A stretch of DNA of 64,000 nucleotides from an uncultured Gemmatimonadales bacterium (lineage in GTDB: Bacteria; Gemmatimonadota; Gemmatimonadetes; Gemmatimonadales; Gemmatimonadaceae): the NCBI GenBank assembly GCA_963793305.1, contig CAWBZV010000005.1, positions 192,001 to 256,000 of the forward strand, in the 5' to 3' direction. Shown here one piece after another: positions 1,332 through 32,231 of the stretch (positions within the stretch are counted from its first letter, which is position 1; every line of letters starts with the position of its first letter). Under the pieces are notes generated by a model, which ran no database searches, was not told the origin of the DNA, and worked only from the letters and a program-made list of their open reading frames with translations. The translations under genes were made by a program, and so were the position numbers.

Positions 1332-2963
1332 ATGACCGATCCACGCCGCATCATGCGCGGCGTCTACGTCGGTCGCTTCATCATCTCGGTCGCGATCTTC
1401 CTCGCCGCGCAGCTCGTATGGGAGCGGACGCCGACGGAAGATGCGCGGCTGGCCTCGCTCATCTTCGCGGTCGCGATTCTCTTCACGGCCGCGTCCGCAA
1501 CGTATAGCGAAGTCGTTCACGCCGGCTCCCGCCCGATCCCGCGCCCCTTCTTCTCGCTCCAGACGGCGTTCGATATCGCGCTGGTCACGGCCGTGGTCCA
1601 CGTCACGGGTGGGTCGCTCTCCCCGTTCGTGTGGCTCTACATCCTCGTCATCGCCTGCGCCGCACTGTTGCTGCCCGTGGGCGCGGGGCTCTTGATCGCC
1701 CTCGCCTGCGATGTCTGTTACTTCGCCGAAGTCCTCTGGCTGAGTCACACGGCGCCGGACGTTGGTGTCTGGCTCCAACTCGTCGTCTTCGGCACCGTCG
1801 CACTCGGCAGCGGCTATGTCGGCGCCCGACTGCAGCAAGCCGGCGCCGGCACCGCGGCCGAACTGGTGTTCGTGCGGCTGCAGGCCGAGGACATTCTCCG
1901 CAATATCCGGAGCGGCATCATCACGATCGACGCCCGGGGATATTTGCTCTACGCCAACCCGGCCGCCACGGATTTGCTGGGAATGAGGCCACGCCGTTCG
2001 ACGGGTGCACCAGTCGTGCAACAAATCGCGTCCGTCGCGCCGCGCCTGGCGCGGGCGCTCGAGGAGGCTGCCACCCATCGGTTCAGAACCACCCGCGGCG
2101 AGGACATCGTCACGCTGCCGGATCGCGCCTTCCCCATTGGCGTCACGACGACGTTCAGCGATGGCGACGGCACCCCCGGCTCGGCCACGGCGACCGCCAT
2201 TTTTCAAGACATCTCCGGCCAGAAGCGTCTGGAAAGCCTCCACGTGCGCGCGGGCCGTCTGGAGGCGGTCGCCGAGCTGGGCGCGTCGCTCGCCCACGAG
2301 ATCAAGAACCCGCTGGCCTCTATACGCAGCGCCGTCGAACAGTTGGCGCGGATGCCCCAGGCCGACGAGGACGCGCGGACGTTGGGATCGCTGATCACGC
2401 GCGAATCGGACCGGCTGTCACGTCTTTTGACAGAGTTCCTCGACTTCGCGCGCGTGCGCGTCACGCGTCTTCAGGCCGTCGATGTGGGCTCTATCGCGGC
2501 GGCCGCCGTCGATCTGGTCGCGACGCACCCGGATCGGGCATCTGGCGTCTCCATAACCTGTTCCGTTCCCGACACTCCGCTCGTCATCGACGGGGACGAA
2601 GATCTGTTGCACCGCGCCGTGTTCAATCTCGCACTCAATGCGGCGCAAGCGACGCCACCGAACGGGAAGGTCCGCGTGGAGGTCGCGCCGGTCGCGGCGG
2701 AACAACTCCCCAGTGGCGTGTCGTTCGACTCGGGCGCGGTCGCGCTCAAGGTGAGCGACAATGGACCGGGGATCGCGCCGGAAGTGCGCGAGCGCATGTT
2801 CGAACCATTCATGACGACAAAACCAGGCGGGAGCGGATTAGGCCTGTCCGTTGTGCACCGCGCGATCGAAGCCCATCGCGGGGTGGTGCTCGTTGATACC
2901 GATGCGACGGGGACCCGTTTCACTGTGTTGTTGCCTTACTCGCAGAACGAGGACGTGGCGTGA
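1332..2963 (+). CDS. pilS: PilS-like membrane sensor histidine kinase (TM region, PAS, HisKA, HATPase)
   Basis: H-box LAHEIKNPL, N-box NLALNA, DNGPGI, GSGLGL; N-terminal TMs with DIALVT...TGG.LSPF; heads the pilus locus. Start chosen at ATG 1332 (alternative 1278). Confidence 0.8.
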   Translation: MTDPRRIMRGVYVGRFIISVAIFLAAQLVWERTPTEDARLASLIFAVAILFTAASATYSEVVHAGSRPIPRPFFSLQTAFDIALVTAVVHVTGGSLSPFVWLYILVIACAALLLPVGAGLLIALACDVCYFAEVLWLSHTAPDVGVWLQLVVFGTVALGSGYVGARLQQAGAGTAAELVFVRLQAEDILRNIRSGIITIDARGYLLYANPAATDLLGMRPRRSTGAPVVQQIASVAPRLARALEEAATHRFRTTRGEDIVTLPDRAFPIGVTTTFSDGDGTPGSATATAIFQDISGQKRLESLHVRAGRLEAVAELGASLAHEIKNPLASIRSAVEQLARMPQADEDARTLGSLITRESDRLSRLLTEFLDFARVRVTRLQAVDVGSIAAAAVDLVATHPDRASGVSITCSVPDTPLVIDGDEDLLHRAVFNLALNAAQATPPNGKVRVEVAPVAAEQLPSGVSFDSGAVALKVSDNGPGIAPEVRERMFEPFMTTKPGGSGLGLSVVHRAIEAHRGVVLVDTDATGTRFTVLLPYSQNEDVA

Positions 2964-4348
2964 CCGACGGAAACGGGAATGGCAACGGGAAGCCGTCGGT
3001 CTTGGTGATCGATGACGAGTCGGGGATTCTCGACTCGTTGCGTATTCTGCTCAAGAACGAAGGCTTCCACCCGCATACCGCGCTCGGCGGCAAGATCGCG
3101 TTGGAACAGATCGACGCGATCAACCCCGACATCGTCCTGAGCGATGTCCGCATGCCGGCGGTCGGGGGCGTGCAAGTCTTGAGCGCCGTCCGCTCGCGCT
3201 ATCCCGATACGCCCGTCATTCTCATGACCGCCCAAGCGACGCTCCAGTCGGCGATGCAGGCGGTCAACGAAGGCGCTTTTTACTATATCCAGAAGCCGTT
3301 CCGGAACGACGAGCTCATCGCGATCCTCAAGCGGGCCGCCGAGCACCGTCGTCTCCGCATGGAGAACACGTCGCTCCGCCAGGAGATCAAGCGTCGCGAG
3401 CGCCGGACCGATGGCCGCCCGGTGGGCAACAGCAAGACCTGGCTCGACGTCGTCACGTTGGCCGAGACGGTCGCCCCCACCGAATCGACCGTCCTGATCC
3501 AGGGCGAATCTGGCACGGGCAAGGAAGTCATCGCCCGCTACATCCATCAGCTGTCGAACCGCACCGACGCCCAGTTCGCGTCGATCAACTGCGGCGCGCT
3601 GCCGGAGAGCCTGCTGGAAAGCGAGTTGTTCGGTCACGTCAAGGGCTCGTTCACGGGCGCCGTGAAAGACAAAAGCGGCCTGTTCACCGCGGCGGCAGGC
3701 GGCACGTTCTTCCTCGACGAAATCGGCGAGACCACACCGGCCACGCAAGTCAAGCTGCTCCGGGTGCTGCAACACCGTGAAGTCATCCCGGTCGGCGCGA
3801 CGGACCCGCTCCCGATCGATGTGCGCCTCTTGGCCGCGACGAATCGCGATCTCGAGGAAGAGATCAAGCGCGGCGCGTTTCGCAGCGACCTATTCTATCG
3901 CCTGAACGTGATCGCGTTGCACCTACCGCCCCTGCGGGACCGGCGCGATGACATTCCGCTGCTCGTCGATGCGTTCCTGCGCGGCGCCTCGGAAGCCCGA
4001 AGCGAACCCCAGAAGCGCGTCAGCGACGCGGCGCTCGAAGTGCTGCGCAGCTTCTCCTGGCCCGGCAACGTCCGCGAGCTCGAAAACGCCCTCGAACGCG
4101 CCGTGATTCTGACGCCGGGCGAGGTGATCGAGGTCAGCGCGCTGCCCGAGCGCGTGACCGAGCGCCGGTCAGAGCCGCTCGTATCCGATCGCGTCCCCTC
4201 GACGCCCACGCTCGATGTCATCGAGCGCGCGTATATCCTGTGGGTACTGCAGAGCGAAGGCGGCAACAAGACCCGCGCCGCCGACGTCCTCGGCATCGAT
4301 CCGTCGACGCTCTACCGCAAGCTGTCCCGTTTCGGGGTCGAGGCGTGA
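2960..4348 (+). CDS. pilR: PilR/NtrC-type sigma54-dependent response regulator
   Basis: Receiver (IDDE, LSDVRMP), [32 protein letters not shown]-terminal Fis HTH; overlaps the kinase stop. Confidence 0.82.
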   Translation: MTDGNGNGNGKPSVLVIDDESGILDSLRILLKNEGFHPHTALGGKIALEQIDAINPDIVLSDVRMPAVGGVQVLSAVRSRYPDTPVILMTAQATLQSAMQAVNEGAFYYIQKPFRNDELIAILKRAAEHRRLRMENTSLRQEIKRRERRTDGRPVGNSKTWLDVVTLAETVAPTESTVLIQGESGTGKEVIARYIHQLSNRTDAQFASINCGALPESLLESELFGHVKGSFTGAVKDKSGLFTAAAGGTFFLDEIGETTPATQVKLLRVLQHREVIPVGATDPLPIDVRLLAATNRDLEEEIKRGAFRSDLFYRLNVIALHLPPLRDRRDDIPLLVDAFLRGASEARSEPQKRVSDAALEVLRSFSWPGNVRELENALERAVILTPGEVIEVSALPERVTERRSEPLVSDRVPSTPTLDVIERAYILWVLQSEGGNKTRAADVLGIDPSTLYRKLSRFGVEA

Positions 4349-4349
4349 C

Positions 4350-5975
4350 GTGACGAGATGGAAGGCGGCGATCGTGGCGCTGGCTCTGGCCTCATCGCTC
4401 TCGAGCGTCCGCAACGGATTCGCGTACGATGACGTGCCCATGATCTCCCAGAACACGCCGTTCCATGCGCTCGGGAGCATTGGGCATCGGTTCGTCGAGT
4501 CGTACTGGCCCAGAGACCAGGGACACGCGCTCTACCGCCCTCTGACGACAGCGCTGTTCACGCTGGAATGGGCGGTGGGCGGCGGTTCGCCGCTGCCGTT
4601 TCACATCGTCAACATTCTGCTGTACGCGGCCGTCTGCCTGGCGGTCTATGCGCTGGCGCGACGGCTCGTGTCGCCCACCGTGTCCGTGATCGTCGCCGGT
4701 CTCTACGCCATCGACCCCGTGCACGTCGAAGTATTCGCCAACAGCGTCGGCCTCTCGGAGTTGCTCACCGCCTTGAGCGTCATTGGCGCGACGATCTGGT
4801 ATATCGATCGGCGCACCGTGGGTGACCTGCGCGGACGCGATGTCGCCTTGCTGTCGTGTGTCTATGCTCTCGGGTGTCTCGCCAAAGAGTATACGATCGT
4901 TCTGCCCGCGATCTTGGTCGCGGCCGAGCTCACGGTCATTACGGACGATCGGCCGCTCATTGAGCGGGCGAGAGCACTGCGTCTCCTCCTGCTTTCGCTG
5001 ACGCTCGTCGCCGTGGCCTATATCGCCCTTCGGATCCACGTCACGGGTTCGCTCGTCGCCGAAAATCCGGCGATCCCGCTCCGCGATGCGGCCTATGCCA
5101 CGCGCTGGTGGACGATGCTCAGCCTCGTCACGGAGTGGGTACGGCTTCTGGTGTGGCCGGCGCATCTGGCCGCCGTGTACTCGCCGCCCGGCACGCCGCT
5201 CTACCAGCACGCCAATCTCCAGTCCGCGATCGGGGCCGCACTCCTGCTGGCCGTTGGGGCGCTGGCGCTCGCTGGACGGAGGCGCCTGCCGGTGGCGTCG
5301 TTCGGCATCGCGTGGATCGGGCTCATTCTGCTGCCCATTAGCAATGTCGTGGTCAAGTCCGGCGTCCTGCTCGCCGAACGGACGCTGTTTCTGCCGAGTG
5401 TCGGCGCGGCGCTCATTCTGGGCGCCATCCTCCCGATCGCGGCCACCTGGTTCCCGTGGTCTCGCGCGATGCGTCTCTCAGCCACGGCGGCCGGGGTGCT
5501 CCTGGTCGGCGCCGGGATCTGGCGCTCGGCGACGCGCGCGGTCGTGTGGCACGACAATCTGACGTTGTTCGCCGCCTCGATCGTCGACGAGCCGCTGAGC
5601 TACGCCGCGCACTTTGGAGAGGCCGGCATGATGTTCGACAATCGGAAGTATGGAACGGCCGAGCGGGAGATCCATATCGCATTGCGCTTGTATGACGGCG
5701 ATCCGCGCGTGTACGTGGACCTGGGTACCGTCTATGAAAAGACCGGCCACTGCGACGCCGCCACCCGGCTGGCGAACCATGCGCTCGAGCTCGAGCCGTA
5801 CTTCGTGATGGCGCGCCTGATGATCGCGCGTTGCTTGGAAAAGGCCGGGGACTACCGCGCGCTGCGGTCAGTCGCCATCGAGGGCCTCGCCGACGGCATT
5901 CAGACCAAGTTGTATCGCGAGGTGCTCTTCACGGCCGACAGCGGCGTTCGTGCGGCTGCTACCGGACAACATTAA
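4350..5975 (+). CDS. TMTC-like GT-C membrane glycosyltransferase with C-terminal TPRs (copy 1)
   Basis: NGFAYDD, YRPL, FHIVNILL, PVHVEV, KE, AERTLFLPS, WHDNLTL, then TPR-like helices. Start inferred at GTG 4350 just after the pilR stop. Confidence 0.78.
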   Translation: MTRWKAAIVALALASSLSSVRNGFAYDDVPMISQNTPFHALGSIGHRFVESYWPRDQGHALYRPLTTALFTLEWAVGGGSPLPFHIVNILLYAAVCLAVYALARRLVSPTVSVIVAGLYAIDPVHVEVFANSVGLSELLTALSVIGATIWYIDRRTVGDLRGRDVALLSCVYALGCLAKEYTIVLPAILVAAELTVITDDRPLIERARALRLLLLSLTLVAVAYIALRIHVTGSLVAENPAIPLRDAAYATRWWTMLSLVTEWVRLLVWPAHLAAVYSPPGTPLYQHANLQSAIGAALLLAVGALALAGRRRLPVASFGIAWIGLILLPISNVVVKSGVLLAERTLFLPSVGAALILGAILPIAATWFPWSRAMRLSATAAGVLLVGAGIWRSATRAVVWHDNLTLFAASIVDEPLSYAAHFGEAGMMFDNRKYGTAEREIHIALRLYDGDPRVYVDLGTVYEKTGHCDAATRLANHALELEPYFVMARLMIARCLEKAGDYRALRSVAIEGLADGIQTKLYREVLFTADSGVRAAATGQH

Positions 5976-5984
5976 TGTTCCGCC

Positions 5985-6782
5985 ATGACCGACACGCCCC
6001 GTCCACTCCACGAGCCACTGACCGGCCCCACGATTCAGCGTCTGCGGGGTCGTACGCCGATACAGCGCGGCAACGTCCGCTTGTCGGTGCTGATCCCGGT
6101 CTACAACGAGCAAGCGACGATCCGGCTGATCCTGGACCAGGTGCACGCGGTGAAGGTGCAGAAAGAGATCATCTGCGTCAACGATTGCTCGACGGATGGC
6201 ACGAAGGAGATCCTGGACACGCTCGCGGCCGAAGGGAGGATCGACACGTTGATCCACCAGCCGGTCAATCGCGGCAAGGGCGCGGCGATCCGGACGGCGC
6301 TCGCGGCGAGCACGGGCAACATCGTCATCGTGCAAGACGCCGATCTGGAGTACGATCCCGCCGACTGGCCGGTGCTCCTCGAGCCGGTGATCGACGGAGT
6401 GGCCGACGCGGTCTTCGGGTCCCGCTTCATGGGCGGGCCGCACCGCGTACTGTACTTCTGGCACTCGGTCGGCAACGCATTCCTGACGACCTGCAGCAAC
6501 GTCCTCACGAATCTCAACCTGACCGACATGGAGACGTGCTACAAGGCGATCCGCGGCGATCTCGCGCGGTCGCTCGTGCTGACGTCGGATCGGTTCGGGT
6601 TCGAGGTCGAGGTGACGGCCCGGCTGGCGCAGGCCAAGGTGCGGATCTACGAGGTGCCGATCAGTTACTCGGGGCGGACGTACGCGGAAGGGAAGAAAAT
6701 CGGGTGGAAGGACGGGCTGGCGGCCATCTGGCACATCGTGCAATACAATCTCCAGTCGCCATCGCGGTTGCCCTCGCGCTGA
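5985..6782 (+). CDS. GT2 glycosyltransferase, DPM1/polyprenyl-phosphate sugar synthase-like
   Basis: LSVLIPVYNE, VNDCSTDGT, NRGKGAA, QDADLEYDP, VFGSRF, TDMETCYK, FGFEVE, EVPISYSGRTYAEGKKIGWKDG. Confidence 0.9.
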   Translation: MTDTPRPLHEPLTGPTIQRLRGRTPIQRGNVRLSVLIPVYNEQATIRLILDQVHAVKVQKEIICVNDCSTDGTKEILDTLAAEGRIDTLIHQPVNRGKGAAIRTALAASTGNIVIVQDADLEYDPADWPVLLEPVIDGVADAVFGSRFMGGPHRVLYFWHSVGNAFLTTCSNVLTNLNLTDMETCYKAIRGDLARSLVLTSDRFGFEVEVTARLAQAKVRIYEVPISYSGRTYAEGKKIGWKDGLAAIWHIVQYNLQSPSRLPSR

Positions 6783-8398
6783 TCGCGGCGCTCGCCTACG
6801 CGAACAGTCTCCTCAACGGCTATACCCTCGACGACGCCGCGATCGTACTCGACAACCCCCTGGTCCATAGCCTGACCGGGGTGTGGCGCGCGTTCGCGCA
6901 TCCCTACTGGCCCGAACCGTGGGGGTGGGGTCAGTACCGCCCGCTGGCGATCGCATCGTTTACCGTCCAATGGTGGCTCGGCGGTGGCGCGCCGTGGGTG
7001 TTTCATCTGGTCTGCATCGCCTGGCACGCCACGGCGTGCGTCCTCGTGTGGCGGCTGCTCTCCGCATGGCTCGCGCCCGCCGGGGCGGCATTCGGCGCAC
7101 TCTGGTTCGCGCTCCACCCCGTTCATGTCGAGGCCGTCGCGAGCGTCGTCGGGCAGACGGAGCTCATGGCCGCCGTCTTCGTTCTCGCGGCATGTCTCGC
7201 GCACCGGCGTGGGCAGCGGATCGCCGCGCTCTGGTTCGCGTTGGCGCTGCTCTCGAAAGAGAGCGGCATCGTCTTTCTCGGCCTCGCCTTGGCCGTAGAC
7301 CTCGTAGACGGGGCTCGCCCGGCTCGCCGGTACGCGCTCTACGTGCGGTACGGCGTCGTCGCGGCACTCTATGCGGCCTGTCTCGTGATCCTGTTCGCGA
7401 GCCAACCCTTGAGCAAGATCGCGCCGACGTGGGCGGGCGCGACGGTCGGCGAGCGGTGGCTGACGATGCTCACCGTCGTGCCGCAATACGTGCAACTGCT
7501 GGTAGCGCCGACCACCCTGCATATGGATTACGGGCCGCGCGTGATCGAGCTCGCGACCGCGGTGACGCCGGCAGTTGGGCTTGGCGCCGCGTTGCTCGTT
7601 CTGCTGGTCATCGCTGCGGTGGCTGCGCGAAAGCGGGCGCCGATGGTCACGCTCGGCCTCGCGTGGATCGCGATCGCCATCGCACCAGTGGCCAACGTGC
7701 TCTTTCCCGCGGGCGTCGTGATGGCCGAACGCACCCTCTATCTGCCGAGCGTCGGTGCGGCGCTCATCGCGGGGTGGGTGGCGTATTGGGTGTCGGAACG
7801 CGTGCCACAACGGGCTGCCGCGGCACTCGCCGCCGCGTGCGCCGTGGCCTTTGCGGCCCGGACGTGGACGCGTACGCCGGTGTGGCATGACGACATCGCG
7901 TTGACGCTCGCCGCGCTGCACGACTCGCCGACATCGTACAAAGCCCATCACGCGGCCGGCGTGTTGTTCGCGCAGACCGGGCACTGGACCGAGGCCGCCA
8001 ACGAGTATCGCTATGCGCGATGGCTCTTTCCTCTCGACCTCGAGCCATATCGAGGCGGAGCTGAGGCAGCGCTGGTCGTGCACGACTACGATGCCGCCGC
8101 GGCGCTGCTCGACAGCGCTCGGCATCTGGCGCCCCGCCGCTTCTCCCCGTGGATTCGTCTGGCCGACGTTCGGTTCAAACAGGAGCGGTGGCGCGAGGCG
8201 AGCGCGCTCGCGTTCGGCGCCTATGAGATGAGTCCCGATTCCCTGCGCGCGCTCGGGATCGCCATCAATGCCAACGTGCGGGCGGGTGACATCCGCGAGG
8301 CCGCATCCATCGTCAAGCGCGGGCTCGCCGATCACCCGGGTGACGAGCGGCTCCGCCGGGAGTCAGTGTACGTCGCTGGGCTACCCGGAAAACCATGA
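6704..8398 (+). CDS. TMTC-like GT-C membrane glycosyltransferase with TPRs (copy 2); start uncertain, possibly fused to the upstream GT2
   Basis: YANSLLNGYTLDD, YRPL, HPVHVEAVA, SKESG, AERTLYLPS, RTPVWHDD, TPR tail. The nearest in-frame start is GTG 6704, inside the GT2 gene. Confidence 0.75.
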   Translation: MEGRAGGHLAHRAIQSPVAIAVALALIAALAYANSLLNGYTLDDAAIVLDNPLVHSLTGVWRAFAHPYWPEPWGWGQYRPLAIASFTVQWWLGGGAPWVFHLVCIAWHATACVLVWRLLSAWLAPAGAAFGALWFALHPVHVEAVASVVGQTELMAAVFVLAACLAHRRGQRIAALWFALALLSKESGIVFLGLALAVDLVDGARPARRYALYVRYGVVAALYAACLVILFASQPLSKIAPTWAGATVGERWLTMLTVVPQYVQLLVAPTTLHMDYGPRVIELATAVTPAVGLGAALLVLLVIAAVAARKRAPMVTLGLAWIAIAIAPVANVLFPAGVVMAERTLYLPSVGAALIAGWVAYWVSERVPQRAAAALAAACAVAFAARTWTRTPVWHDDIALTLAALHDSPTSYKAHHAAGVLFAQTGHWTEAANEYRYARWLFPLDLEPYRGGAEAALVVHDYDAAAALLDSARHLAPRRFSPWIRLADVRFKQERWREASALAFGAYEMSPDSLRALGIAINANVRAGDIREAASIVKRGLADHPGDERLRRESVYVAGLPGKP

Positions 8399-10194
8399 GC
8401 GAGACGTTCGACGAGCAGGACCGCTGGCAGCGCTGGGCCGTCGCGAGTCTCGCGCTCATCGCCGTTCTGTGCTACGCGAACGCGTTGGCCAACGGGTACG
8501 TGCAGGATGATCAGGGCATCATCCACGACAACCCGCTGGTCACGACGGTATCCGGCCTGTGGCGGGCGTTTATTCATCCGTACTGGCCCGAACGGAACGG
8601 CGCCGGTCAGTATCGGCCGCTCGTCATCGCGTCATTCGTGTTCGACCGCGCCGTCCTGCATCTCGGCGCCTGGTGGTTTCACCTCGAGAACGTCGCCTGG
8701 CACGCGTTCGTGTGCGTGCTCGTGTATCGTCTGCTCTGTTTAACGCTCTCCTGGCGTGCCGCCTGGCTCGGCAGCGCTTGGTTCGCGCTGCAGCCTATAC
8801 ATGTCGAGGCCGTATCGAACGGCGTCGGTCGCTGCGAGCTCATGGCGAGTGCCTTTGTCCTGCTCGCGTTCTTTGCCCACCGGGAACGAAAGCGCATCGC
8901 GGTGCTCTGGTTCGCGCTCGCTCTCGCCTCCAAAGAAAGCGGCATCGTCTTTTTGGGACTCGCTGTACTGAACGACGTATTGCTGAATCGCTCGAGCACG
9001 AACACGACTGGCACGAACGCAACGGACACGAACGCGGCGGCCACCACGACAGGCGCGCAGCGCCTTCGCGAGACGTATCTCTCGTACCTCTGTGTCGCGA
9101 CAGTCTACGCGGGTGTGCTGAGCCTGGTCTTCCAGCACAAGATGTTCGTCGCCACCGCGGTGACGTGGGACGATGCGACTCCGGTCGATCGCTGGCTGAC
9201 AATGCTGCGCGTGGTGCCGGAGATCGCGCGGTTGCTGCTCGCGCCGGTCGACCTCAAAGTCGACTACACGCCGCGCACGATCGATTTGGTCACCACGGTG
9301 ACGCCGGCGGTCGTCCTCGGGGCCAGCCTGCTGGTCGCCTCGCTCATCGCGATGGTGGCGGCCTGGCGCCGCGCGCCGGCGGTCGCGTTCGGCATTGCCT
9401 GGTTCTATATCGCGTTCTCGCCGGTATCGAACGTCCTGTTTCCATCGGGCGTCGTCCTCGCCGAGCGCACGTTGTATTTGCCGAGCGTGGGCGCGGCAAT
9501 GGTGGCGGGATGGATCGCCGAGCGCGTGCTCGCGGCTCGTCCTCGTGCGGTGGCCGTGTTCGCGACCGCCCTGTTCGCGGCCTTCTCGGTGCGCAGCTGG
9601 ACGCGCACGCCCTTCTGGCACGACAAGCGGCATTTCCTGATCCAGGAAGTGTCCGAGGAGCCGGAATCCTACCGCGCGCATTTCACGGTCTGCGTGCTCA
9701 TGGCGCTGGAGAAAAATTTCAGTGCCGGTGCGTACGAGTGCCGGGTCGCGCGGCAGTTGCATTCCCGGGACATTGGCCCGTATGACACCGGCGCGGACAA
9801 CGCCCTGGGTCTCCACGACACCGCGACGGCCGAGGCGTTGCTCGACAGCGCCTTGCACAAGGGTCCCGACGACTACGCGACGCTGCTGCTCTTCTCGCGC
9901 CTGCGCCGCGTCCAGGGTCGCTATCGCGAGTCGATCGCCCTCGCGTTCTCGGCCTACGAGTCCATGCCGGACAGTCTGTCCCCTATCGACGAGTTGACGA
10001 GCTCCGCGCAGAAGCTCCACGACTTTATGGATGCCGAGGCCGCGCTCCGCCGCGCCCTGGCCGACCACCCAACCAGCGCGCACCTGCACGAGAGCTATGC
10101 CGCGATGCTCGCGGATCGCGGGGACACCGCGGCTTCGCGCCGCCAATTGGCACTGGCCAGATCTGGCGCGATCGCCACGCTGTTCAACCAATAG
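8395..10194 (+). CDS. TMTC-like GT-C membrane glycosyltransferase with TPRs (copy 3)
   Basis: YANALANGYVQDD, YRPL, QPIHVEAVSNGVGRCELM, SKESG, AERTLYLPS, RTPFWHD, TPR tail; clear paralogue of copy 2. Confidence 0.8.
   Translation: MSETFDEQDRWQRWAVASLALIAVLCYANALANGYVQDDQGIIHDNPLVTTVSGLWRAFIHPYWPERNGAGQYRPLVIASFVFDRAVLHLGAWWFHLENVAWHAFVCVLVYRLLCLTLSWRAAWLGSAWFALQPIHVEAVSNGVGRCELMASAFVLLAFFAHRERKRIAVLWFALALASKESGIVFLGLAVLNDVLLNRSSTNTTGTNATDTNAAATTTGAQRLRETYLSYLCVATVYAGVLSLVFQHKMFVATAVTWDDATPVDRWLTMLRVVPEIARLLLAPVDLKVDYTPRTIDLVTTVTPAVVLGASLLVASLIAMVAAWRRAPAVAFGIAWFYIAFSPVSNVLFPSGVVLAERTLYLPSVGAAMVAGWIAERVLAARPRAVAVFATALFAAFSVRSWTRTPFWHDKRHFLIQEVSEEPESYRAHFTVCVLMALEKNFSAGAYECRVARQLHSRDIGPYDTGADNALGLHDTATAEALLDSALHKGPDDYATLLLFSRLRRVQGRYRESIALAFSAYESMPDSLSPIDELTSSAQKLHDFMDAEAALRRALADHPTSAHLHESYAAMLADRGDTAASRRQLALARSGAIATLFNQ
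8997..9041 (+). repeat. Three imperfect 15-bp tandem repeats (cacgaacNNNNNNNN) encoding a Thr/Asn-rich loop in TMTC-like copy 3
   Basis: cacgaacacgactgg / cacgaacgcaacgga / cacgaacgcggcggc, translating to TNTTG-TNATD-TNAAA. Confidence 0.7.
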
Positions 10195-10339
10195 CTGTCA
10201 ACAAATGCGGCAGCGGTCGAAAGGGGCACCGCAGACTGCAATGCGTCGTGCAAATCACGCCGCTGATTCATCTGGATCGCGAAGATTGCCCGACGTTCAT
10301 GTTGTTCTATGGCAATAACTTACATAGTTGAGTTCGTCG

Positions 10340-10355
10340 TGGCCCGAGCGTTGCC
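10340..10355 (+). promoter_or_regulatory. Sigma54 (-24/-12) promoter of the major pilin gene
   Basis: TGGCCCGAGCGTTGCC against consensus TGGCACGNNNNTTGCW with correct GG-N10-GC spacing, about 80 nt upstream of the pilA ATG, downstream of an AT-richer tract. Confidence 0.8.
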
Positions 10356-10432
10356 TTAGTACCGCGCAGACGTCGGTACACGGTGACGCGTGGTCACCGG
10401 GCCCTCAACACCCCCCTCCGGAGTATCTAGTC

Positions 10433-10846
10433 ATGAAGACGGCCAAGAAAGGTTTCACACTGATCGAGCTTCTGATCGTCGTGGTCATTATCGGTATTCT
10501 TGCCGCGATCGCGATTCCGAAGTTCGCTTCGACGAAGCAGAAGGCGTATACCGCCTCGATGAAGACTGACCTGCGTAACCTCGTGACCGCGCAGGAAGCG
10601 TACTTCTCCGACAACACGACCTACGCTGGCGCGACGGCGAGCCTTTCGACCTCGTTCCACGTGTCGGCTGGTAACGCGGTTGCGTTCGTCTCGAACACCG
10701 CGACGGGTTGGAGCGCGACGGCGACGAACACGTTCGTCCCGACGACCGCGAGCGGCCATATCTGCGGCGTGTGGGTTGGTGGTTCGGCGTCGCAGCCGAG
10801 TGGTATCACGGCTGACTCGATCGAAGGTGCGCCGGCTTGTTCGTAA
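10433..10846 (+). CDS. pilA: Type IVa major pilin (copy 1)
   Basis: MKTAKKG/FTLIELLIVVVIIGILAAIAIP prepilin motif, C-terminal Cys pair, GGAG SD and sigma54 promoter upstream. Confidence 0.92.
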   Translation: MKTAKKGFTLIELLIVVVIIGILAAIAIPKFASTKQKAYTASMKTDLRNLVTAQEAYFSDNTTYAGATASLSTSFHVSAGNAVAFVSNTATGWSATATNTFVPTTASGHICGVWVGGSASQPSGITADSIEGAPACS

Positions 10847-10869
10847 GCTGACCTGAAGTTCCGCTTTGC

Positions 10870-10906
10870 CGACGGGCCGGGGATAACTCCCCGGCCCGTC
10901 GAGTTT
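10870..10906 (+). terminator. Strong hairpin, probable terminator or stabiliser after pilA copy 1
   Basis: Perfect 14-bp stem CGACGGGCCGGGGA-TAAC-TCCCCGGCCCGTCG followed by AGTTT. Confidence 0.75.
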
Positions 10907-10967
10907 GCAGACCACGTTGGGACAGTCTGTCACTTCACCCTCAAGTTGCGAAAGCAGAGTGCCGATA

Positions 10968-11393
10968 ATGAACAGTATGCGATACTCTCAGAAGAAAGGC
11001 TTCACTCTGATCGAACTTCTGATCGTCGTGGTGATCATCGGCATTCTTGCCGCAATCGCGATCCCGAAGTTCGCGTCGACGAAGCAAAAGGCGTATACCG
11101 CCTCGATGAAGACCGACCTGCGGAACCTCGTGACAGCCCAAGAGGCGTACTTCTCGGACAACACGTCCTACGCGGGGGCCACTGCCAGCCTCTCGACCTC
11201 GTTCCACGTGTCGGCGGGTAACGCGGTTTCCTTCGTCTCGAACACCGCGACGGGTTGGAGCGCGACGGCCACCAACACGTTCGTCCCCGCGACCGCGAGC
11301 GGCCATATCTGCGGCGTGTGGGTTGGCGGTGCCGCGTCGAAGCCGAGCGGCATCAATGCCGACTCGCTCGAGGGCGCCCCGGGCTGTTCTTGA
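10968..11393 (+). CDS. pilA: Type IVa major pilin (copy 2, near-identical paralogue)
   Basis: SQKKG/FTLIELL motif; mature chain differs from copy 1 at 8 of 130 residues; start at 10968 or 10977. Confidence 0.9.
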   Translation: MNSMRYSQKKGFTLIELLIVVVIIGILAAIAIPKFASTKQKAYTASMKTDLRNLVTAQEAYFSDNTSYAGATASLSTSFHVSAGNAVSFVSNTATGWSATATNTFVPATASGHICGVWVGGAASKPSGINADSLEGAPGCS

Positions 11394-11521: not shown

Positions 11522-12565
11522 ATGGGGCTCTTCGGCCGCAAGAAAACCACCATCGGACTCGATATCGGATCCGGCCTCGTCAAGGTCGTCGTGATCGAGC
11601 ACGGGCGCGAGCCCGAGCTGACGAGAGTCGCGATTACCCCACTGTCCGCCGACGCGATCGTCGATGGCGAGATCATGGATCCGACGATCGTCGCCGACGC
11701 GATCCGGCAGGCGCTGGAGACCGCGGGGGTGAAGAAAGCCAAGGGCGTCGTGACGGCCGTGGGTGGTCGCGACGTGATCATCAAGAAGATCCAGATCGAG
11801 CGCGTGAAGGAATCCCAAGCGCGCGAGCTGATGCGCTGGGAAGCCGAGCAACACGTGCCGTTCGACATGGAATCGGTCGAGCTGGACTTCCAGATCTTGG
11901 ACCCCGATGGGGACGGCCTGGAGATGGCCGTGCTGCTGGTGGCCGCGAAACGCGAGCTCGTCGAGAACCGCCTGCGCTTACTCACCGACGCCGGGTTGGC
12001 TCCGACGACCGTCGATGTCGATGCCTTCGCGCTCCACAATGCCTTCGAAGTGAACTATCCGGACGCGATGACCGGTGTTGTCGCGCTGGTGAACATTGGC
12101 CACGAAGTCACAAATATTAATATCTTGGACGATGGCGTCCCGATCCTGACCCGCAATGTGGCGGTCGGCACGCGCCGGCTGAGAGAAGATCTGCAACGCG
12201 AGCGCGGGCTGTCGCAGGAAGAAGCCGACGGTCTACTGCAGGGGTTCGATCGCTCGCCCCACCTGGATGCCGTGATCGAGACGCGGAGCGAGGAGATCGC
12301 GGTCGGCATCGAGCGCGCCGCGGCGTTCCTCGCCTCGTCGTCCCGCTCGGCCGGCCAGCTGCGCGCCGTGTACACGTGCGGCGGCGGGGCGCGGATTCCG
12401 GGACTCACCGAAGCGTTGGCCTCGCGCCTCCGCTTGTCGGTCGAGCAAGCGAACCCGTTGGCGAACTTGAAGGTGCGTGACGGCGCTTTCGATTCGCTCG
12501 TCACAGACGAAGTCGCGCCACTCTTGATGCTTCCGATTGGTCTCGCCCTTCGCCACGCCGCGTGA
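11522..12565 (+). CDS. pilM: Type IV pilus assembly protein PilM
   Basis: IGLDIGSGLVK, EAEQHVPFD, LLVAAK, VDVDAFAL, VNIG, CGGGA; actin-like fold. Confidence 0.93.
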   Translation: MGLFGRKKTTIGLDIGSGLVKVVVIEHGREPELTRVAITPLSADAIVDGEIMDPTIVADAIRQALETAGVKKAKGVVTAVGGRDVIIKKIQIERVKESQARELMRWEAEQHVPFDMESVELDFQILDPDGDGLEMAVLLVAAKRELVENRLRLLTDAGLAPTTVDVDAFALHNAFEVNYPDAMTGVVALVNIGHEVTNINILDDGVPILTRNVAVGTRRLREDLQRERGLSQEEADGLLQGFDRSPHLDAVIETRSEEIAVGIERAAAFLASSSRSAGQLRAVYTCGGGARIPGLTEALASRLRLSVEQANPLANLKVRDGAFDSLVTDEVAPLLMLPIGLALRHAA

Positions 12566-12569
12566 CACT

Positions 12570-13292
12570 ATGATTGAAATCAACCTGCTGCCAGGCGCCG
12601 GGAAGAAAGCCCGCGGGAAAGCGGGCGGTCCCGATGTCGGAGGGAAGGTCGCCTCCGCCGCGTCGGCGCTCAAGGAACCGTACCTGATTCTCTGCGTCAT
12701 GACGCTGCTGCTGGCGGGCGGGGTGATCGGGTTCATGTTCAAGCAGCAAGACGACAAGAACCAAGAGCTCACGGCCACCGAGCAGAAGAACGTGCAGGAC
12801 TCGACGCGCTACGCGGCCGTCCTGCGCGAGAAGAAGAAGGCCGAGACGCAGCGCGACTCGGTCATGCACCAGCTGAATATCATCAAGACCATCGACAACA
12901 ATCGCTTCGTCTGGCCCCACGTGATGGACGAGATCAGCCGGGCCATGCCACAGTACACCTGGTTGACGGCGCTGGAGCAGACGAGCGCGGTCACGATCGT
13001 CGGCACGGTCGACACGACGACCAAGAGCAAGAAAAAGAAGGCCGAAATGGAAGACGAGCCGGCGCCGAAGCTCACGTTCCGGATCGCCGGGAACACCGTC
13101 GACATTCAGGCGCTGACGCGGTTCATGAAGCTGCTCGAGGCGTCGCCGTTCATTCAGAACGTGCAGCTCGAGAAGTCGGATGTCGCGTTGGTCGATGGGA
13201 AGGATGTGACCGAGTTCTCGCTGTCGGCCGAGTATCAGACGCCCGACTCGACGGCGATCCGCACGATCCCCCTCACGCTGTCGGTGCGGTAA
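12570..13292 (+). CDS. pilN: Type IV pilus assembly protein PilN
   Basis: MIEINLLP motif, single TM, coiled coil, EISRAMP..TWLT. Confidence 0.9.
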   Translation: MIEINLLPGAGKKARGKAGGPDVGGKVASAASALKEPYLILCVMTLLLAGGVIGFMFKQQDDKNQELTATEQKNVQDSTRYAAVLREKKKAETQRDSVMHQLNIIKTIDNNRFVWPHVMDEISRAMPQYTWLTALEQTSAVTIVGTVDTTTKSKKKKAEMEDEPAPKLTFRIAGNTVDIQALTRFMKLLEASPFIQNVQLEKSDVALVDGKDVTEFSLSAEYQTPDSTAIRTIPLTLSVR

Positions 13293-13298
13293 CCCGCT

Positions 13299-13943
13299 AT
13301 GCAATTCCCTCCGAAAACCCCGCGCGACCTGGCGTACCTGGGCTTCTGTATCGTCTGGTTCGGCGGCATCTTCGCCTACTGGACGATGGCGTACTCGCCG
13401 AAGGAGTCCGAGCTGGCCGCGGTGCAGTCGCACATCCAGCAGCTCGAGCAGGGCAACCAGCGGGCGAAGGCCGAGCTGGCCAAGGGCAGCGTGAACGATC
13501 TGCGCGCCCAGGCGCTCCGCTATCAGCAGAACCTGCAGCTGATGCGGCAGCTCGTGCCGACCACCAACGAAGTGCCGGCGCTGCTCGAGCAGGTGTCGAC
13601 GGCCGCGCGGCGAGTGAACCTCGAGCTCAACGGCGTCGATCCGGAGCCGGTGATCTCGGGCGACCAGTTCGATACCTATCGCTATCAGATCACCGTGATC
13701 GGTGACTACCACGCGCTCGCGGCGTTCCTGACGAACATCGGTTCGCTGACGCGTATCGTCGCCCCGGTCAACCTCAAGCTCGCGGCAATGTCGCAGCAGG
13801 ACGCGGACCGCCTCCATGCGGGCCGCAACAAGTCGGCGCTGAGCTCCAAGTTCGAGATCCAGACCTACGTCGCCAAGGGCGCCGCGGCCACGGTGGACCC
13901 GTCGGTCCACGGGCGGCCGGCGAAGCCCGGAGCCAAGTCATGA
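13299..13943 (+). CDS. pilO: Type IV pilus assembly protein PilO
   Basis: N-terminal TM, LVPTTNEVPALLEQV, GDYHALAAFLTNIGSLTRIV; operon position. Confidence 0.9.
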   Translation: MQFPPKTPRDLAYLGFCIVWFGGIFAYWTMAYSPKESELAAVQSHIQQLEQGNQRAKAELAKGSVNDLRAQALRYQQNLQLMRQLVPTTNEVPALLEQVSTAARRVNLELNGVDPEPVISGDQFDTYRYQITVIGDYHALAAFLTNIGSLTRIVAPVNLKLAAMSQQDADRLHAGRNKSALSSKFEIQTYVAKGAAATVDPSVHGRPAKPGAKS

Positions 13944-14716
13944 TGATGCGATCTATCGGGTTCGTCCTCGCCAGTGTCGCGATCATCGCGACGCGGGCCA
14001 ACGCGCAGGGAATGATCAGCGGCGCGAAAGCGGTTGCCGGTCGTGCGGCGAGCGCAGTGAACGCGCACACCGCGGCTGAGCAGAGTCCCACCGCCACACC
14101 CACCGGCACGACCACCGCAGCGACGCCGGCGGCGTCGACCGCGGCGAGCAAGGTCACGCCAATTACCACCACCGCCAAAACGACTCCGGTCGTCACCACC
14201 ACGACGAAGTCGTTGGCGGCGCCCGCCGCCACGACCAAGGCTGCCCCGGCCGCGACAACGAAGCCCGTCGCGGTCGCCAAGGCGGCCCCGGTAGCAAAGA
14301 CGGCGCCGGCGGCTGCGCCAATGGTCACATCGGACACCGGCGCGCGCTCGATCTCGGTCACGCAGCGCGGCATGAAAGGCGAGGTCTCGCTCAACCGCGA
14401 AGTGTTCAGCTACGACGCAGGCGGCCGACGCGATCCGTTCGTCTCGCTGCTCCGCAATGGCGATCTTCGCCCGATGCTGAACGACCTGCGCTTGGTGGCG
14501 GTGCTCTACGACCCCACCGGGCGTAACTCGGTCGCCGTGATGAACAACGTCACGACGAAGGACAACCAGTACCGGGTCAAGGTGGGCCAGACGCTCGGAC
14601 GCATGCGCGTCGCCGGCATCGAGCCCCGGGAAGTCGTGTTCACGATCGAGGAGATCGGGTTCAGTCGCCAGGAAGCGCTGGTGCTCGGTGATTCATCCAG
14701 AGTGAGGACGCAATGA
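13940..14716 (+). CDS. PilP-like protein with a long Thr/Ala/Pro/Lys-rich linker
   Basis: Signal peptide, low-complexity linker, YDAGGRRDPF motif, VKVGQTLG; lies between pilO and pilQ. Confidence 0.72.
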   Translation: MMMRSIGFVLASVAIIATRANAQGMISGAKAVAGRAASAVNAHTAAEQSPTATPTGTTTAATPAASTAASKVTPITTTAKTTPVVTTTTKSLAAPAATTKAAPAATTKPVAVAKAAPVAKTAPAAAPMVTSDTGARSISVTQRGMKGEVSLNREVFSYDAGGRRDPFVSLLRNGDLRPMLNDLRLVAVLYDPTGRNSVAVMNNVTTKDNQYRVKVGQTLGRMRVAGIEPREVVFTIEEIGFSRQEALVLGDSSRVRTQ

Positions 14717-16672
14717 AGCATGTGAGGATGCTGATCGCCGCCTCCGGTCTGGCGCTCGGAAGCGCGCAGGCCATGGTGGTGGCTACCCCGCCGGCGCCGC
14801 GCGTCGCGGGTGCCGTCACGGGGGTCAGCGTACTCCCGTCGGCCGGGAGAGCAGACGTGGTCGTCGATGTCGACAAATCCGTCGACATCCAGGACTTCGT
14901 CTTGGAGATGCAGCCCTACCGGATCGTCGTCGACTTCACCGGCGCCCGGTTGGCGACAGGCTCACGGTTCTACGATCGCTCGCCACGCGGTGCGATCACG
15001 AACGTGCGCTACGCACAGTACAAGGCCGGCGTCGTCCGCGTCGTGATCGAGCTCGATGGCGCGCACAAGTACAGCATGACGCGCGATGACCACGCGGTCC
15101 ACGTGACCATCGATGGCGGCGAGGGCCAGTTCGCGGCCTGGTCGTCGGGTGGCGTCACGTTCCCCGTGACGGCTGCCGCGTCGATCGCGCCGGCCGCGTC
15201 GATCACCGCGATGCCCGCGGACGCGGTCCAGCAGGGGATAACCCCCGCGGCGCCGATCGTCTCCAGTGCCGCTGGCCTCGTGGTTCCGGTCGCGAAGCGC
15301 TCGCCGGTGCCAATCCCCGGCCACAGTGTGCTGCAGCACGCGACGCAGTCCACCCAGCCGCGGATCAACATTACCTATTACGACGCCGAGATCCGGGAAG
15401 TGCTCGGCGCCTTCGCTGCCTTCTCGGGCCGGACGATCATCGTCGGCCGCGAAGTGCAGGGGAACGTGACCGCCGAGATTCGCGATCAACCGTGGGATGT
15501 CGCGCTGCAGTCGATTCTGTCGGCCCAGCAGCTGGCGGCCTCGGAAGACCAGTACGGCATTATCACGGTCGACTCCTATAAGAACATTCAGGCCAAGCAA
15601 GCCAGCGAGCCGCTGATTACGCAGCTCGTGTCGATCAACTACGCGAGCGCCCCGTCCCTCGTCGCGACCGTCAATTCATTGCTGGCGCGCGACTGCGGCG
15701 GAGCGGGTGGTGGTGGCGGGACGCCGGCTGCCTGCGCACCGCGCGGGAACGTCGTCGCGGACTCGGGGACGAACAGCCTCTTGATCACCGAATCGCAGTC
15801 GCACATGAACGACGTGATCAACTACGTGCGCGACCTCGATATCCGGACGCCGCAGGTGTCGATCAAGGCCAAGATCGTGTTCATCAATCGCACGGTCGCC
15901 CAGCAGCTCGGGTTGGCCTACGACTTCGAGGAGCCGAACCAGTACTTCAACAAGCTCGTCGACCACGTCAACCCGGCGCAGGCGCCGAGCTTGTACGACC
16001 CGAATACCTATGTCGTCAACCTGGGCGGCGACGCGCTCGCTGGTATCGCCAACGCCAGCCGGCCGCTCGCGTCGGGGTCGGCGCTCAACCTGATCTACTC
16101 GATGAGCCTCGGGAAGTTCTCGCTCACGTCGTTCCTCGACGCGTTGGCGATGAACAACCTGTCCGACGTGCAGGCCGAGCCGAGTGTGGTCACGCTCGAC
16201 AACCGGCCGGCGAAGATCCAGGTCGGTCAGGAAACCCCGATCCGCGTGATCGACGCCTCGTCGAACGGCGTCGGCGGAACGGCCCGTGCGACGGTGTCCT
16301 TCAAGGAGACTGGTATCATCCTCCAAGTGACGCCGCACATTACGAACAACGGCCAGGTCCTGATGCAGCTGCACGCCGAGCAGTCGACGCTGTCACAGAC
16401 GGGCGGCGACCTCGGGTACTTCTTCTTCAAGCGCTACGCCGACAACCAGCTCCTCGTGAACGACGGCGAGACGGCGGTAATCGGTGGCCTCACGCAGACG
16501 ACAGTGACGAAGTCGAAGTCGGGCATTCCGTTCCTCTCCGACCTGCCGCTGATCGGGAGCTTGTTCTCCCAGAACGTCGAACGAGGAAGACAAGCAAGAC
16601 CTGCTGATCCTCGTGACACCGCACATTCTGCCCGAGAACGAGGCCGTCCGCACGCCGTCCGCGACGCGCTGA
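14713..16672 (+). CDS. pilQ: Type IV pilus secretin PilQ (AMIN + N domains + secretin); one frameshift near 16580
   Basis: DQPWDVAL, DSGTNSLLI, PQVSIKAKIV, GIILQVTPHI, DGETAVIGG, GIPFLSDLPLIGSLF; the shifted frame supplies EEDKQDLLILVTPHIL...TGA at 16670-16672. Confidence 0.9.
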
Positions 16673-16689
16673 GGTCTGTTTCGCCCCGT

Positions 16690-16729
16690 TCGCCCGCTCG
16701 GAGCGTTCTCCGGGCGGGCGACGTATTTT
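16690..16729 (+). terminator. Hairpin after pilQ (possible terminator)
   Basis: TCGCCCGCTCGGAG-CGTT-CTCCGGGCGGGCGA followed by CGTATTTT. Confidence 0.6.
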
Positions 16730-16735
16730 GGGGTA

Positions 16736-17926
16736 ATGCTGCGCTTCACCACCGCCGGCGAATCCCACGGCCCAGCCCTCGTCAGCATCCTCGAGGGGAT
16801 GCCCGCCGGCGTCCCATTAGTCGCCGCGGACGTCAACTCGGAGCTCTCGCGCCGCCAAGCGGGCTACGGCCGCGGGCGCCGCATGCAAATCGAGCGCGAT
16901 GAGATCGAGTGGCTCGCCGGCGTCCGCGCCGGTCAGACGCTCGGCTCCCCAATCGCCATGCTGATTCGGAATCGCGACTGGTCGCACTGGCAGGATATCA
17001 TGGATCCTGCCGCTCGCCCCGAGGACACCTCCTCTCTCCGCAAACGTGCCGTCACCCGTCCGCGCCCAGGCCATGCAGACCTGACAGGCGTCCTGAAATA
17101 CGACCGCGAGGACGCGCGTGATATCCTGGAGCGCGCCTCGGCGCGCGAGACCACGGCCCGCGTGGCGGCAGCAGCGGTGTGTCGGCGGTTCCTGGCCGAA
17201 TTCGCGATCACCATCGGGAGTCATCTCGTCCATCTTGGCGGAGTAGATGCCGAGGTGCCGGCATGCCTCCCGGATGACATCAATGCCGCGGCCGATGAGT
17301 CACCGCTTCGCACGCTGGACCGCGCGGCCGAGCAAGTAATGATCGAGCGTATAGACGCCGCCAAGGCCGAGGGAAACACGCTCGGTGGCATATGTGAAGT
17401 CGTAACGCGCGGTCTCCCAGTGGGCCTGGGCTCCCATGTCTCCTGGGACCGCAAACTCGATGGCCGGCTCGCCGCCGCAATCATGTCGATCCCCGCGGTG
17501 AAGGGCGTAGAGATAGGCATTGGATTCGAAGCCGCTCGTCGAACGGGCGCAGAGGTTCATGATGAGATAGAATCGGCGCCCAATCGGCCGCTGACCGGAA
17601 ATACGCGACGGAAGACCAACCGGGCGGGGGGTCTCGAAGCGGGCATGACAACAGGCGAGCCACTCATCGTCCGCGTGGCGATGAAGCCGATCTCGACGCT
17701 CATGCGCCCGCTCCAAACGATCGACTTGAAGACCAACGAGCCGGCGGCCGCGGTGGCCGAGCGTAGCGATGTGACGGCCGTCCCGGCGATGGGAGTGATC
17801 GCCGAAGCGATGGTCGCCCTGGTCATGGCGAACGCGTTCGTCGAGAAGTTCGGTGGCGACTCCCTTGGCGAGGTCCGCCGGAATTACGACGCTTACGTCA
17901 ATCACATCGCCCAGCGCCTCAGGTGA
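16736..17926 (+). CDS. aroC: Chorismate synthase
   Basis: TAGESHG, RRQAGYGRGRRM, PRPGHADL, ERASARET, MKPISTL, ERSD. Confidence 0.97.
   Translation: MLRFTTAGESHGPALVSILEGMPAGVPLVAADVNSELSRRQAGYGRGRRMQIERDEIEWLAGVRAGQTLGSPIAMLIRNRDWSHWQDIMDPAARPEDTSSLRKRAVTRPRPGHADLTGVLKYDREDARDILERASARETTARVAAAAVCRRFLAEFAITIGSHLVHLGGVDAEVPACLPDDINAAADESPLRTLDRAAEQVMIERIDAAKAEGNTLGGICEVVTRGLPVGLGSHVSWDRKLDGRLAAAIMSIPAVKGVEIGIGFEAARRTGAEVHDEIESAPNRPLTGNTRRKTNRAGGLEAGMTTGEPLIVRVAMKPISTLMRPLQTIDLKTNEPAAAVAERSDVTAVPAMGVIAEAMVALVMANAFVEKFGGDSLGEVRRNYDAYVNHIAQRLR

Positions 17927-25917: not shown

Positions 25918-25918
<1 letters not shown>
25373..25918 (+). CDS. hslV: ATP-dependent protease peptidase subunit HslV (ClpQ)
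   Basis: [40 protein letters not shown]. Confidence 0.97.
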
Positions 25919-27395
<1,477 letters not shown>

Positions 27396-27399
<4 letters not shown>

Positions 27400-31019: not shown

Positions 31020-31021
31020 CT

Positions 31022-32218: not shown

Positions 32219-32231
32219 CCCGGAGCCGCTC

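Follow-up and report, generated by a model that had tools for sequence, protein, structure and literature searches.

Why should three related membrane proteins be encoded between the regulatory genes and the pilin genes of a type IV pilus locus? The question is raised by a stretch of 64,000 nucleotides, hereafter the window, from an uncultured Gemmatimonadales bacterium (assembly GCA_963793305.1, contig CAWBZV010000005.1, positions 192,001 to 256,000; host genome of 5.72 Mb, 92% complete). The original prediction, made from the sequence alone, placed three co-oriented paralogs and a glycosyltransferase of family 2 (GT2, 265 aa) between pilSR and two tandem pilins, and this gene order was confirmed, the complete series on the + strand being pilS, pilR, paralog A, GT2, paralog B, paralog C, a 240-nt gap, pilin 1, pilin 2 and pilM to pilQ. 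From its gene content, predicted fold, motifs and synteny we infer that the cassette (4350–10194) is a periplasmic pilin O-glycosylation system, in which hexose would be transferred from polyprenyl phosphate onto pilin Ser/Thr residues, and we put the probability of this reading at about 0.6.

What kind of protein are the paralogs? Paralog A (541 aa, nt 4350–5975, + strand) begins 2 nt past the pilR stop. Paralog B (about nt 6704–8398, + strand) probably starts from a GTG codon at 6704, thus overlapping the end of the GT2 gene by 79 nt, its motif residues being numbered here from codon 6785. Paralog C (599 aa, nt 8395–10194, + strand) was characterised by AlphaFold2 models, structural matches and TPR (tetratricopeptide repeat) profile matches. 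A is 34% identical to B and 32% to C, with B and C sharing 50% identity. The motifs originally listed are indeed present in all three proteins (A/B/C: DD at residues 27/16/38, YRPL at 62/51/73, HVE at 125/114/136, KE at 179/158/180 and AERT at 342/314/356), as are the TPR tails, with TPR Pfam matches in the C-terminus of every paralog (TPR_19, 28.6 bits in B). Residues D38 D39, R74 P75, P134 H136 E138, K180 E181, R266, P284, Y291, N346, E357 R358 and R404 (paralog C numbering) were invariant in 62 relatives. D38 D39 lies directly after the first transmembrane (TM) helix, so the acidic first-loop motif of C-type glycosyltransferases (GT-C) is present, and the DD pair is found in each of the three paralogs. 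With respect to the protein mannosyltransferases (PMT/GT39) two differences were observed: the PMT_2 profile passes its Pfam cut-off in paralog A alone (28.8 vs 26.1 bits), and no MIR domain was matched by Pfam in any paralog, a TPR tail standing in its place.

A GT-C fold, as had been proposed, is predicted with high confidence. The full-length AlphaFold2 model of paralog C, built from 46 sequences, had a predicted local distance difference test score (pLDDT) of 90.1, and in Foldseek it retrieved TPR proteins only. Since these swamped the search, the TM domain was modelled alone (residues 1–420, 62 sequences; pLDDT 91.9, predicted template modelling score 0.92). When this model was compared by VIA-align with 48,161 PDB representatives, the best 20 matches were all GT-C enzymes (Z 20.3–10.4, 270–348 residues aligned), the next row having a Z of 6.4. 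AglB (3waj, 20.3), Pmt1-Pmt2 (6p2r, 19.6), STT3 (6s7t, 18.7), ArnT (5f15, 18.4) and Pmt4 (9e61, 17.9) were at the top, followed by ALG12, PglB, AftA, DPY19, AftB, PIG-M-type, ALG3, ALG9, AftD, PimE, ALG6 and EmbA/B (10.4). Foldseek analysis of the TM-domain model also gave GT-C glycosyltransferases at ranks 1–46, two rows being the GT-C-like subunit of the glycosylphosphatidylinositol transamidase, with weak E-values (at least 4.8e-3). No TMTC or TfpW structure was among the Foldseek and VIA-align match lists. PDB sequence searches with either a single protein or the family profile retrieved TPR matches only, the family profile matching the TPR domain of O-GlcNAc transferase (OGT) at 6.7e-26. 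The helices of paralog C match a 1-6-4 pattern of 11 TM helices, which is the arrangement given for POMT and TMTC (PMC6801728). Together with a cytoplasmic N-terminus, this pattern would place the TPR tail in the periplasm.

Are the proteins enzymes at all? Several relatives carry the JGI (Joint Genome Institute) labels 'Tfp pilus assembly protein PilF' or 'TadD', and paralog B has a weak NCBIfam PilW match (8.5e-4), as might be seen if the family consisted of non-catalytic TPR scaffolds or pilotin-like pilus assembly factors of the PilF/PilW type. This explanation is hardly credible, however, as the PilF and TadD names derive from the TPR tail alone, the metal-, phosphate- and acceptor-binding GT-C residues are invariant in the 62 sequences, and 54 of the 75 loci surveyed below also contain a gene for a predicted polyprenyl-phosphate sugar synthase. 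A pilotin of the PilF/PilW type was rejected on these grounds.

Among known enzymes, two sets are comparable. Animal TMTC1-4 (CAZy GT105), the dolichyl-phosphate-mannose-dependent O-mannosyltransferases of cadherins, have in common with the window proteins an 11-TM GT-C domain, TPR repeats and motifs M1, M2, M4 and M7. Out of the seven motifs listed for TMTC in Table 4 of PMC7801869, M1 (D38 D39), M2 (Y73 R74 P75), M4 (K180 E181) and M7 (E357 R358 ..Y361) are invariant or nearly so in the 62 sequences. The M5 (DW) position, in EL4, reads xRW, with T, E or D as first residue and Asp in paralog C only. The window proteins stay below the cut-off of the TMTC Pfam profile (see below). Their sugar would come from a bacterial polyprenol and go to pilin, not to cadherin.

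The second set is represented by TfpW, the pilin D-arabinofuranosyltransferase of Pseudomonas (para)aeruginosa group IV (Pa5196, PA7). According to bioRxiv 10.1101/2020.04.19.049825, TfpW is a 646-aa GT-C protein whose 11 TM helices are combined with a TPR domain in the periplasm; loop 1 carries a DDx motif and loop 4 a YX6PFX7P motif, ArnT is the best template, and the gene adjoins pilA. Size (~600–650 aa), 11 TM helices, DDx, TPR tail and pilA neighbourhood are all shared with the window proteins and, judging from its published description, TfpW and the window family look like the same kind of enzyme. The novelty initially claimed, with TfpW set apart, was consequently overstated, TfpW itself being a GT-C with 11 TM helices, DDx and TPR encoded beside pilA. 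Unlike the TfpW gene, the window genes precede pilA, in the interval between it and pilR, and the family occurs in one to three or more copies; furthermore, the predicted donor enzyme of the window is a nucleotide-sugar-dependent GT2 and not the phosphoribosyl pyrophosphate/DprE1/DprE2 arabinose route. The exact YX6PFX7P motif is found in none of the three paralogs (W-X6-P-A-X7-P in A, Y-X6-P-T-X7-P in B, I-X6-P-V-X7-P in C). It is present in 13/62 relatives, always at the column of paralog C residues 277–293, and P284 and P293 of paralog C keep its spacing. In the literature searched, where subscription journals are sparsely covered, neither a pilin-linked TMTC-like system in Gemmatimonadota nor a substrate of a bacterial TMTC-like member other than TfpW was described.

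Which donor could these enzymes use? For the GT2 (nt 5985–6782, + strand; PF00535, 2.6e-31) the predicted activity is that of a polyprenyl-phosphate hexose synthase. Its best NCBIfam matches were AglJ (1e-32) and dolichyl-phosphate hexose transferase (2.7e-19), then PpgS and ArnC-type models, and its best solved relatives were the Pyrococcus dolichyl-phosphate mannose synthase (DPMS; 5mlz, 8.5e-13), GtrB (5ekp) and ArnC. The first description of the protein as DPM1-like was therefore appropriate, the closest enzymes being DPMS/GtrB-type synthases. A DAD motif is located at residues 118–120, and no hydrophobic or TM segment was found in the protein. The co-located GT2 suggests that the GT-C enzymes may use a polyprenyl-phosphate sugar donor. 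In actinobacteria, Ppm1 and Pmt represent such a couple of GT2 polyprenyl-phosphate sugar synthase and GT-C transferase (cf. PMC8698208). A three-component scheme with a GtrB-type GT2 and a GT-C acting outside the cytoplasm has been outlined, the classical GtrB/GT-C systems acting on O-antigen (PMC11127046), and in streptococci GtrB and the GT-C PgtC2 glucosylate Ser/Thr-rich disordered regions of several membrane proteins (PMC12041528). The window resembles the GtrA/GtrB/Gtr*, GtrB/PgtC2 and Ppm1/Pmt systems in the pairing of a GT2 synthase with an extracytoplasmic GT-C, and differs from them because no GtrA-type flippase was found here, the tails are TPR and not MIR, and the genes are tied to pilin genes. 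About 40 kb from the cassette, at 51581–52944, a small cupin similar to the C-terminal portion of ManC is followed by a sugar-1-phosphate nucleotidylyltransferase, a possible nucleotide-sugar supply. The nucleotidylyltransferase (51952–52944) was also considered as a clue to the sugar and dropped, since it fits no single specificity (best match rmlA_long, 192.5 bits, below cut-off).

A lipid-linked sugar might instead be delivered to something other than a protein, for example an exopolysaccharide, lipopolysaccharide or lipid A (cf. ArnT and the Gtr seroconversion enzymes), the link with the pilus being then limited to co-regulation by PilSR. The rank of ArnT among the top structural matches, the O-antigen acceptor of classical GtrB/GT-C systems and the position of the GT-C genes, gapless after pilR, agree with this explanation. 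We nevertheless deem it quite improbable: TPR tails are present on all three proteins, with the substrate-binding TPR of OGT as the best natural match; the TPR-tailed GT-C enzymes of the cited work, as far as described there, act on proteins (TMTC, PMC7801869 and PMC6801728; TfpW); and no polysaccharide synthesis or export genes were found within the cassette.

The regulatory side of the locus is formed by pilS (nt 1278–2963, + strand; Pfam 6TM_PilS, PAS, HisKA and HATPase_c), a sensor kinase, and pilR (nt 2960–4348, + strand; Response_reg, Sigma54_activat 3.5e-67 and HTH_8), a sigma-54 response regulator. By pattern matching, a putative sigma-54-type -24/-12 element, TGGCCC-N5-TTGCC, was located upstream of pilin 1 (nt 10339–10354, + strand), the pattern being based on the sigma-54 consensus spacing. 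The same element occurs in locus L001 and a variant in L002; it is claimed for the window and its closest relatives only, a loose pattern having matched upstream of 11/73 pilin starts. Being contiguous with pilR and upstream of this element, the GT-C genes are probably transcribed with pilSR. A scan for sigma-70 promoters and terminators between 4000 and 11600 gave nothing above shuffled sequences. A perfect 12-bp GC-rich hairpin can be read between the two pilin genes (nt 10871–10900, + strand); lacking a T run behind it, it was not called in the terminator scan.

Type IV pilin 1 (nt 10433–10846, + strand; N_methyl 2.3e-09; NCBIfam typeIV_PilA_Myxo 3.3e-19, below cut-off) has the leader MKTAKKG and a mature part of 130 aa, with Cys104/Cys129 and, in agreement with the count made beforehand, 32 Ser/Thr (15 Ser and 17 Thr). 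Type IV pilin 2 (nt 10968–11393, + strand; N_methyl 5e-10) is also 130 aa when mature, contains 30 Ser/Thr and is 92% identical to pilin 1 in the alignment. The G+C content of the pilin genes is 0.60–0.61, and that of the window ~0.65.

Is the vicinity of GT-C and pilin genes a peculiarity of this genome? In the host only three matches to paralog C were retrieved (E <= 0.001), all of them in the cassette, a clustering beyond what chance would give. Among 41 genomes of the same order, belonging to three families, a GT-C/TPR match (E <= 1e-10) was detected in 27. By coordinate comparison, 23 of these 27 had a match at <= 1 kb from a pilin match on the same contig; the distance was 2.8 kb in genome G039, and no pilin was found near the GT-C match in G007, G013 and G017. 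G012 belongs to the genomes devoid of GT-C or GT2 match and has both pilM and pilin matches. A GT2 ortholog adjoins the GT-C genes in most genomes of families f1 and f2, and lies elsewhere in genus g22.

A second survey by tblastn mapping covered 75 loci, every one from Gemmatimonadota (Longimicrobiales among them), which a scan of one genome per species had retrieved by GT-C similarity only. The linkage to pilins, for which the original prediction had pointed to a comparison of relatives, turned out to be conserved across the phylum: in 49/75 loci the last GT-C gene is followed, after 225–769 nt, by a pilin gene in the same orientation. Since 11 of the 75 loci end within 900 nt and are not assessable, the immediately downstream pilin is kept in 49/64 assessable loci, with the caveat that the surveyed genomes are related and the counts overstate their independence. 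In 6 further loci out of 75 the pilin is found 1.5–4.6 kb downstream. Besides the GT2 (54/75), pilR is present upstream in 51/75 loci. The link to the pilin survives changes in copy number (from one to three or more), in gene order and in orientation (G035); in L011, for instance, the order is GT-C, two other membrane genes, GT2 and pilin.

Eight genomes without the GT-C/TPR family were compared at the same spot. In five of them (G006, G015, G016, G021 and G037) pilS-pilR are directly followed by one or more pilins, in G031 and G033 a gap of 3.5 kb with other genes in it separates pilR from the pilin, and in G020 pilR is followed by two multi-TM genes without TPR, a GT2 and the pilin. Relatives devoid of the cassette keep pilMNOPQ and pilins. 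Given the direct pilR-pilin junctions of these relatives, the cassette behaves as a variable insert at the pilR-pilA junction.

Other genes are met in the same place. A second multi-TM type of 500–540 aa, which lacks the TPR tail and shows FQDDG/FYDDG early in its sequence (e.g., L011:6428–8056, L011:8053–9651 and L023:3512–5014), was found in pilR-pilA cassettes of 36/75 loci; it had no Pfam or NCBIfam match and is possibly another kind of GT-C. In 21/75 loci there is a class I methyltransferase. The window has pilM right after the pilins, a place taken in many Gemmatimonadales loci by a second pilS/pilR-like pair (e.g., L027:10385–11478, L034:9650–11409 and L042:10494–12625).

Several observations count against pilin as the acceptor, or leave gaps in the proposed system. 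Concerning the donor, the GT2 falls below every NCBIfam equivalog cut-off, and the sugar cannot be named on this basis. No flippase is encoded in the cassette and PF04138 (GtrA) had 0 matches in the 92%-complete genome, candidates of the MATE/SMR type not having been searched, whilst the same profile, used as a control, had matches in 8/14 other genomes. As no nucleotide-sugar genes were found within the cassette either, its initial description as self-contained was not borne out. Concerning the enzymes, the likeness to TMTC advanced at the outset stood for the motifs, where DD, YRP, KE and ERxxY match Table 4 of PMC7801869, and failed for the Pfam profile: TMTC_DUF1736 (PF08409, cut-off 27) gave 17.7 bits with paralog B, 18.4 with C and no match with A. 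Close relatives of the window proteins did reach the cut-off: of the 80 longer proteins among 150 listed representatives, 11 were matched at E <= 1e-3 (4 above 27 bits, the best 50.2), and of the members of a 46-sequence alignment 14 were matched at E <= 0.01. Concerning regulation, the GT-C genes are gapless after pilR and upstream of the putative pilin promoter, so that their co-regulation with the pilin is not evident. Concerning the acceptor, Ser/Thr account on average for a fraction of 0.237 of the mature pilin from residue 29 onward when a GT-C gene lies upstream (n=68), and for 0.177 when pilR directly precedes the pilin gene (n=16), a difference whose direction fits the glycosylation idea but which compares raw means that ignore kinship, from sets sampled differently.

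Further points of the same kind concern loci and targets other than pilin. In 9/64 assessable loci no pilin was found in the flank (within 5 kb). Among these nine, L016, L017 and L020 (about 3300–8400) have a solo GT-C/TPR paralog in a Bax1-I / radical-SAM (S-adenosylmethionine) / GT-C / thiC context and come from genomes that also carry the pilin-linked cluster, and a fourth, with a solo copy at L029:504–3271, has it beside a prepilin peptidase gene. The existence of GT-C loci without pilin indicates that the family may serve other acceptors too. Within the window, PilP (nt 13940–14716) contains a low-complexity linker of ~80 residues rich in Thr/Ala/Pro. Linkers of this kind are O-glycosylated in other bacteria, and the PilP linker appears, from its composition, to be an equally plausible O-glycosylation target.

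These data would suit a general O-glycosylation of envelope proteins, similar to Ppm1/Pmt or GtrB/PgtC2, directed to Ser/Thr-rich periplasmic targets such as the PilP linker and other components of the pilus machinery, with the major pilin as a minor target or none. The long T/A/P-rich stretch of PilP, the conserved radical-SAM/thiC context of some members away from pilins, the several membrane proteins modified by the streptococcal GtrB and GT-C, as reported in PMC12041528, and the size of the family, which greatly exceeds a pilin-only role (11,029 cluster representatives of the membrane domain alone at E <= 1e-10), all point in this direction. We still hold such a general system to be unlikely here, as all three host copies are located between pilR and pilA, the place just upstream of the pilin is kept in 49/64 assessable loci even though copy number and gene order vary, and relatives without cassette retain pilMNOPQ as well as pilins.

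Returning to pilin O-glycosylation as the preferred reading, how would it work? On the cytoplasmic side of the membrane, polyprenyl phosphate would be charged by the soluble GT2 with a sugar taken from a nucleotide sugar; a separate flippase would then bring this lipid-linked sugar to the periplasmic side. There, the GT-C enzymes would bind it via the K180/E181 and E357/R358/Y361 loops, with D38/D39 in the first periplasmic loop serving the transfer, and the TPR tail would hold the membrane-anchored pilin acceptor before its entry into the filament. Seen by analogy, this mechanism would be the known scheme of polyprenyl-phosphate synthase and GT-C applied to pilin, as in TfpW, and not a new kind of mechanism.

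A division of labour among the paralogs is suggested by their phylogeny. A FastTree tree, midpoint-rooted, was built with 105 TM domains. They came from the 465 open reading frames (>= 330 aa) of the window and the 75 loci, and were retained if >= 300 query positions were aligned; shortened or frameshifted copies were dropped. Paralog A belongs to the older of two Gemmatimonadota clades, with 42 leaves (support 0.94), whereas B and C belong to a 63-leaf clade (1.0), in which they join inside a clade of 8 (0.886). At the level of these sequences there are at least two old paralog types (A vs B/C) and one recent duplication. With two old clades, the paralogs would differ in the site modified, or in initiation vs extension of a short glycan. 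The presence of the cassette in some genera and its lack at the same spot in others would be as expected for a variable trait masking the pilus surface, possibly against pilus-specific phages.

A bolder version of pilin O-glycosylation takes the cassette as a bacterial counterpart of animal cadherin O-mannosylation, with a DPM1-like enzyme making polyprenyl-phosphate hexose and site-specialised TMTC-type paralogs adding single sugars to Ser/Thr of the folded beta-sheet head of the pilin, and with a phylum-wide, phage-driven variation of the surface, produced as the cassette is gained, lost or changed in copy number at the pilR-pilA junction. We consider this version possible but doubtful; if true, a substrate would for the first time be assigned to the very large TMTC-like family of bacteria. 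In public data, 31,640 cluster representatives match the membrane domain at E <= 1e-3. If pilin glycosylation by the cassette is confirmed, the use of lipid-monophosphate-sugar GT-C enzymes on pilins would be widespread and not a Pseudomonas oddity, and a sugar coat would be expected on the pili of Gemmatimonadota, a point of relevance to phage adsorption and to surface attachment in soils. Human brain malformations involve mutated TMTC enzymes, for which confirmation would also provide bacterial models.

Downstream of the pilins, pilM, pilN, pilO, pilP and pilQ occupy nt 11522–16902 on the + strand, with pilM at 11522–12565 (PilM_2 6.9e-59) and Secretin, AMIN and Secretin_N matches in pilQ; pilN, pilO and pilP were named by position and order only. 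The pilQ frame lacks the canonical secretin C-terminus (16540–16902), the expected ending (..DLLILVTPHIL..) being found in another frame (16553–16672), and the listed pilQ open reading frame continues into aroC, an apparent frameshift. Elsewhere in the window, topA (18749–21212) is split across two overlapping frames, an HslU-like AAA protein (25873–27399) is in two pieces, and cstA (55694–56800) covers only profile positions 265–560. These split genes suggest indel errors in the assembly, and the pilQ shift may also be an artefact. Finally, a minor-pilin cluster is present at 30022–34316. Two of its products resemble GspH/FimU and PilV, respectively, a third (398 aa) has a prepilin motif, and a fourth (704 aa) matched no family.

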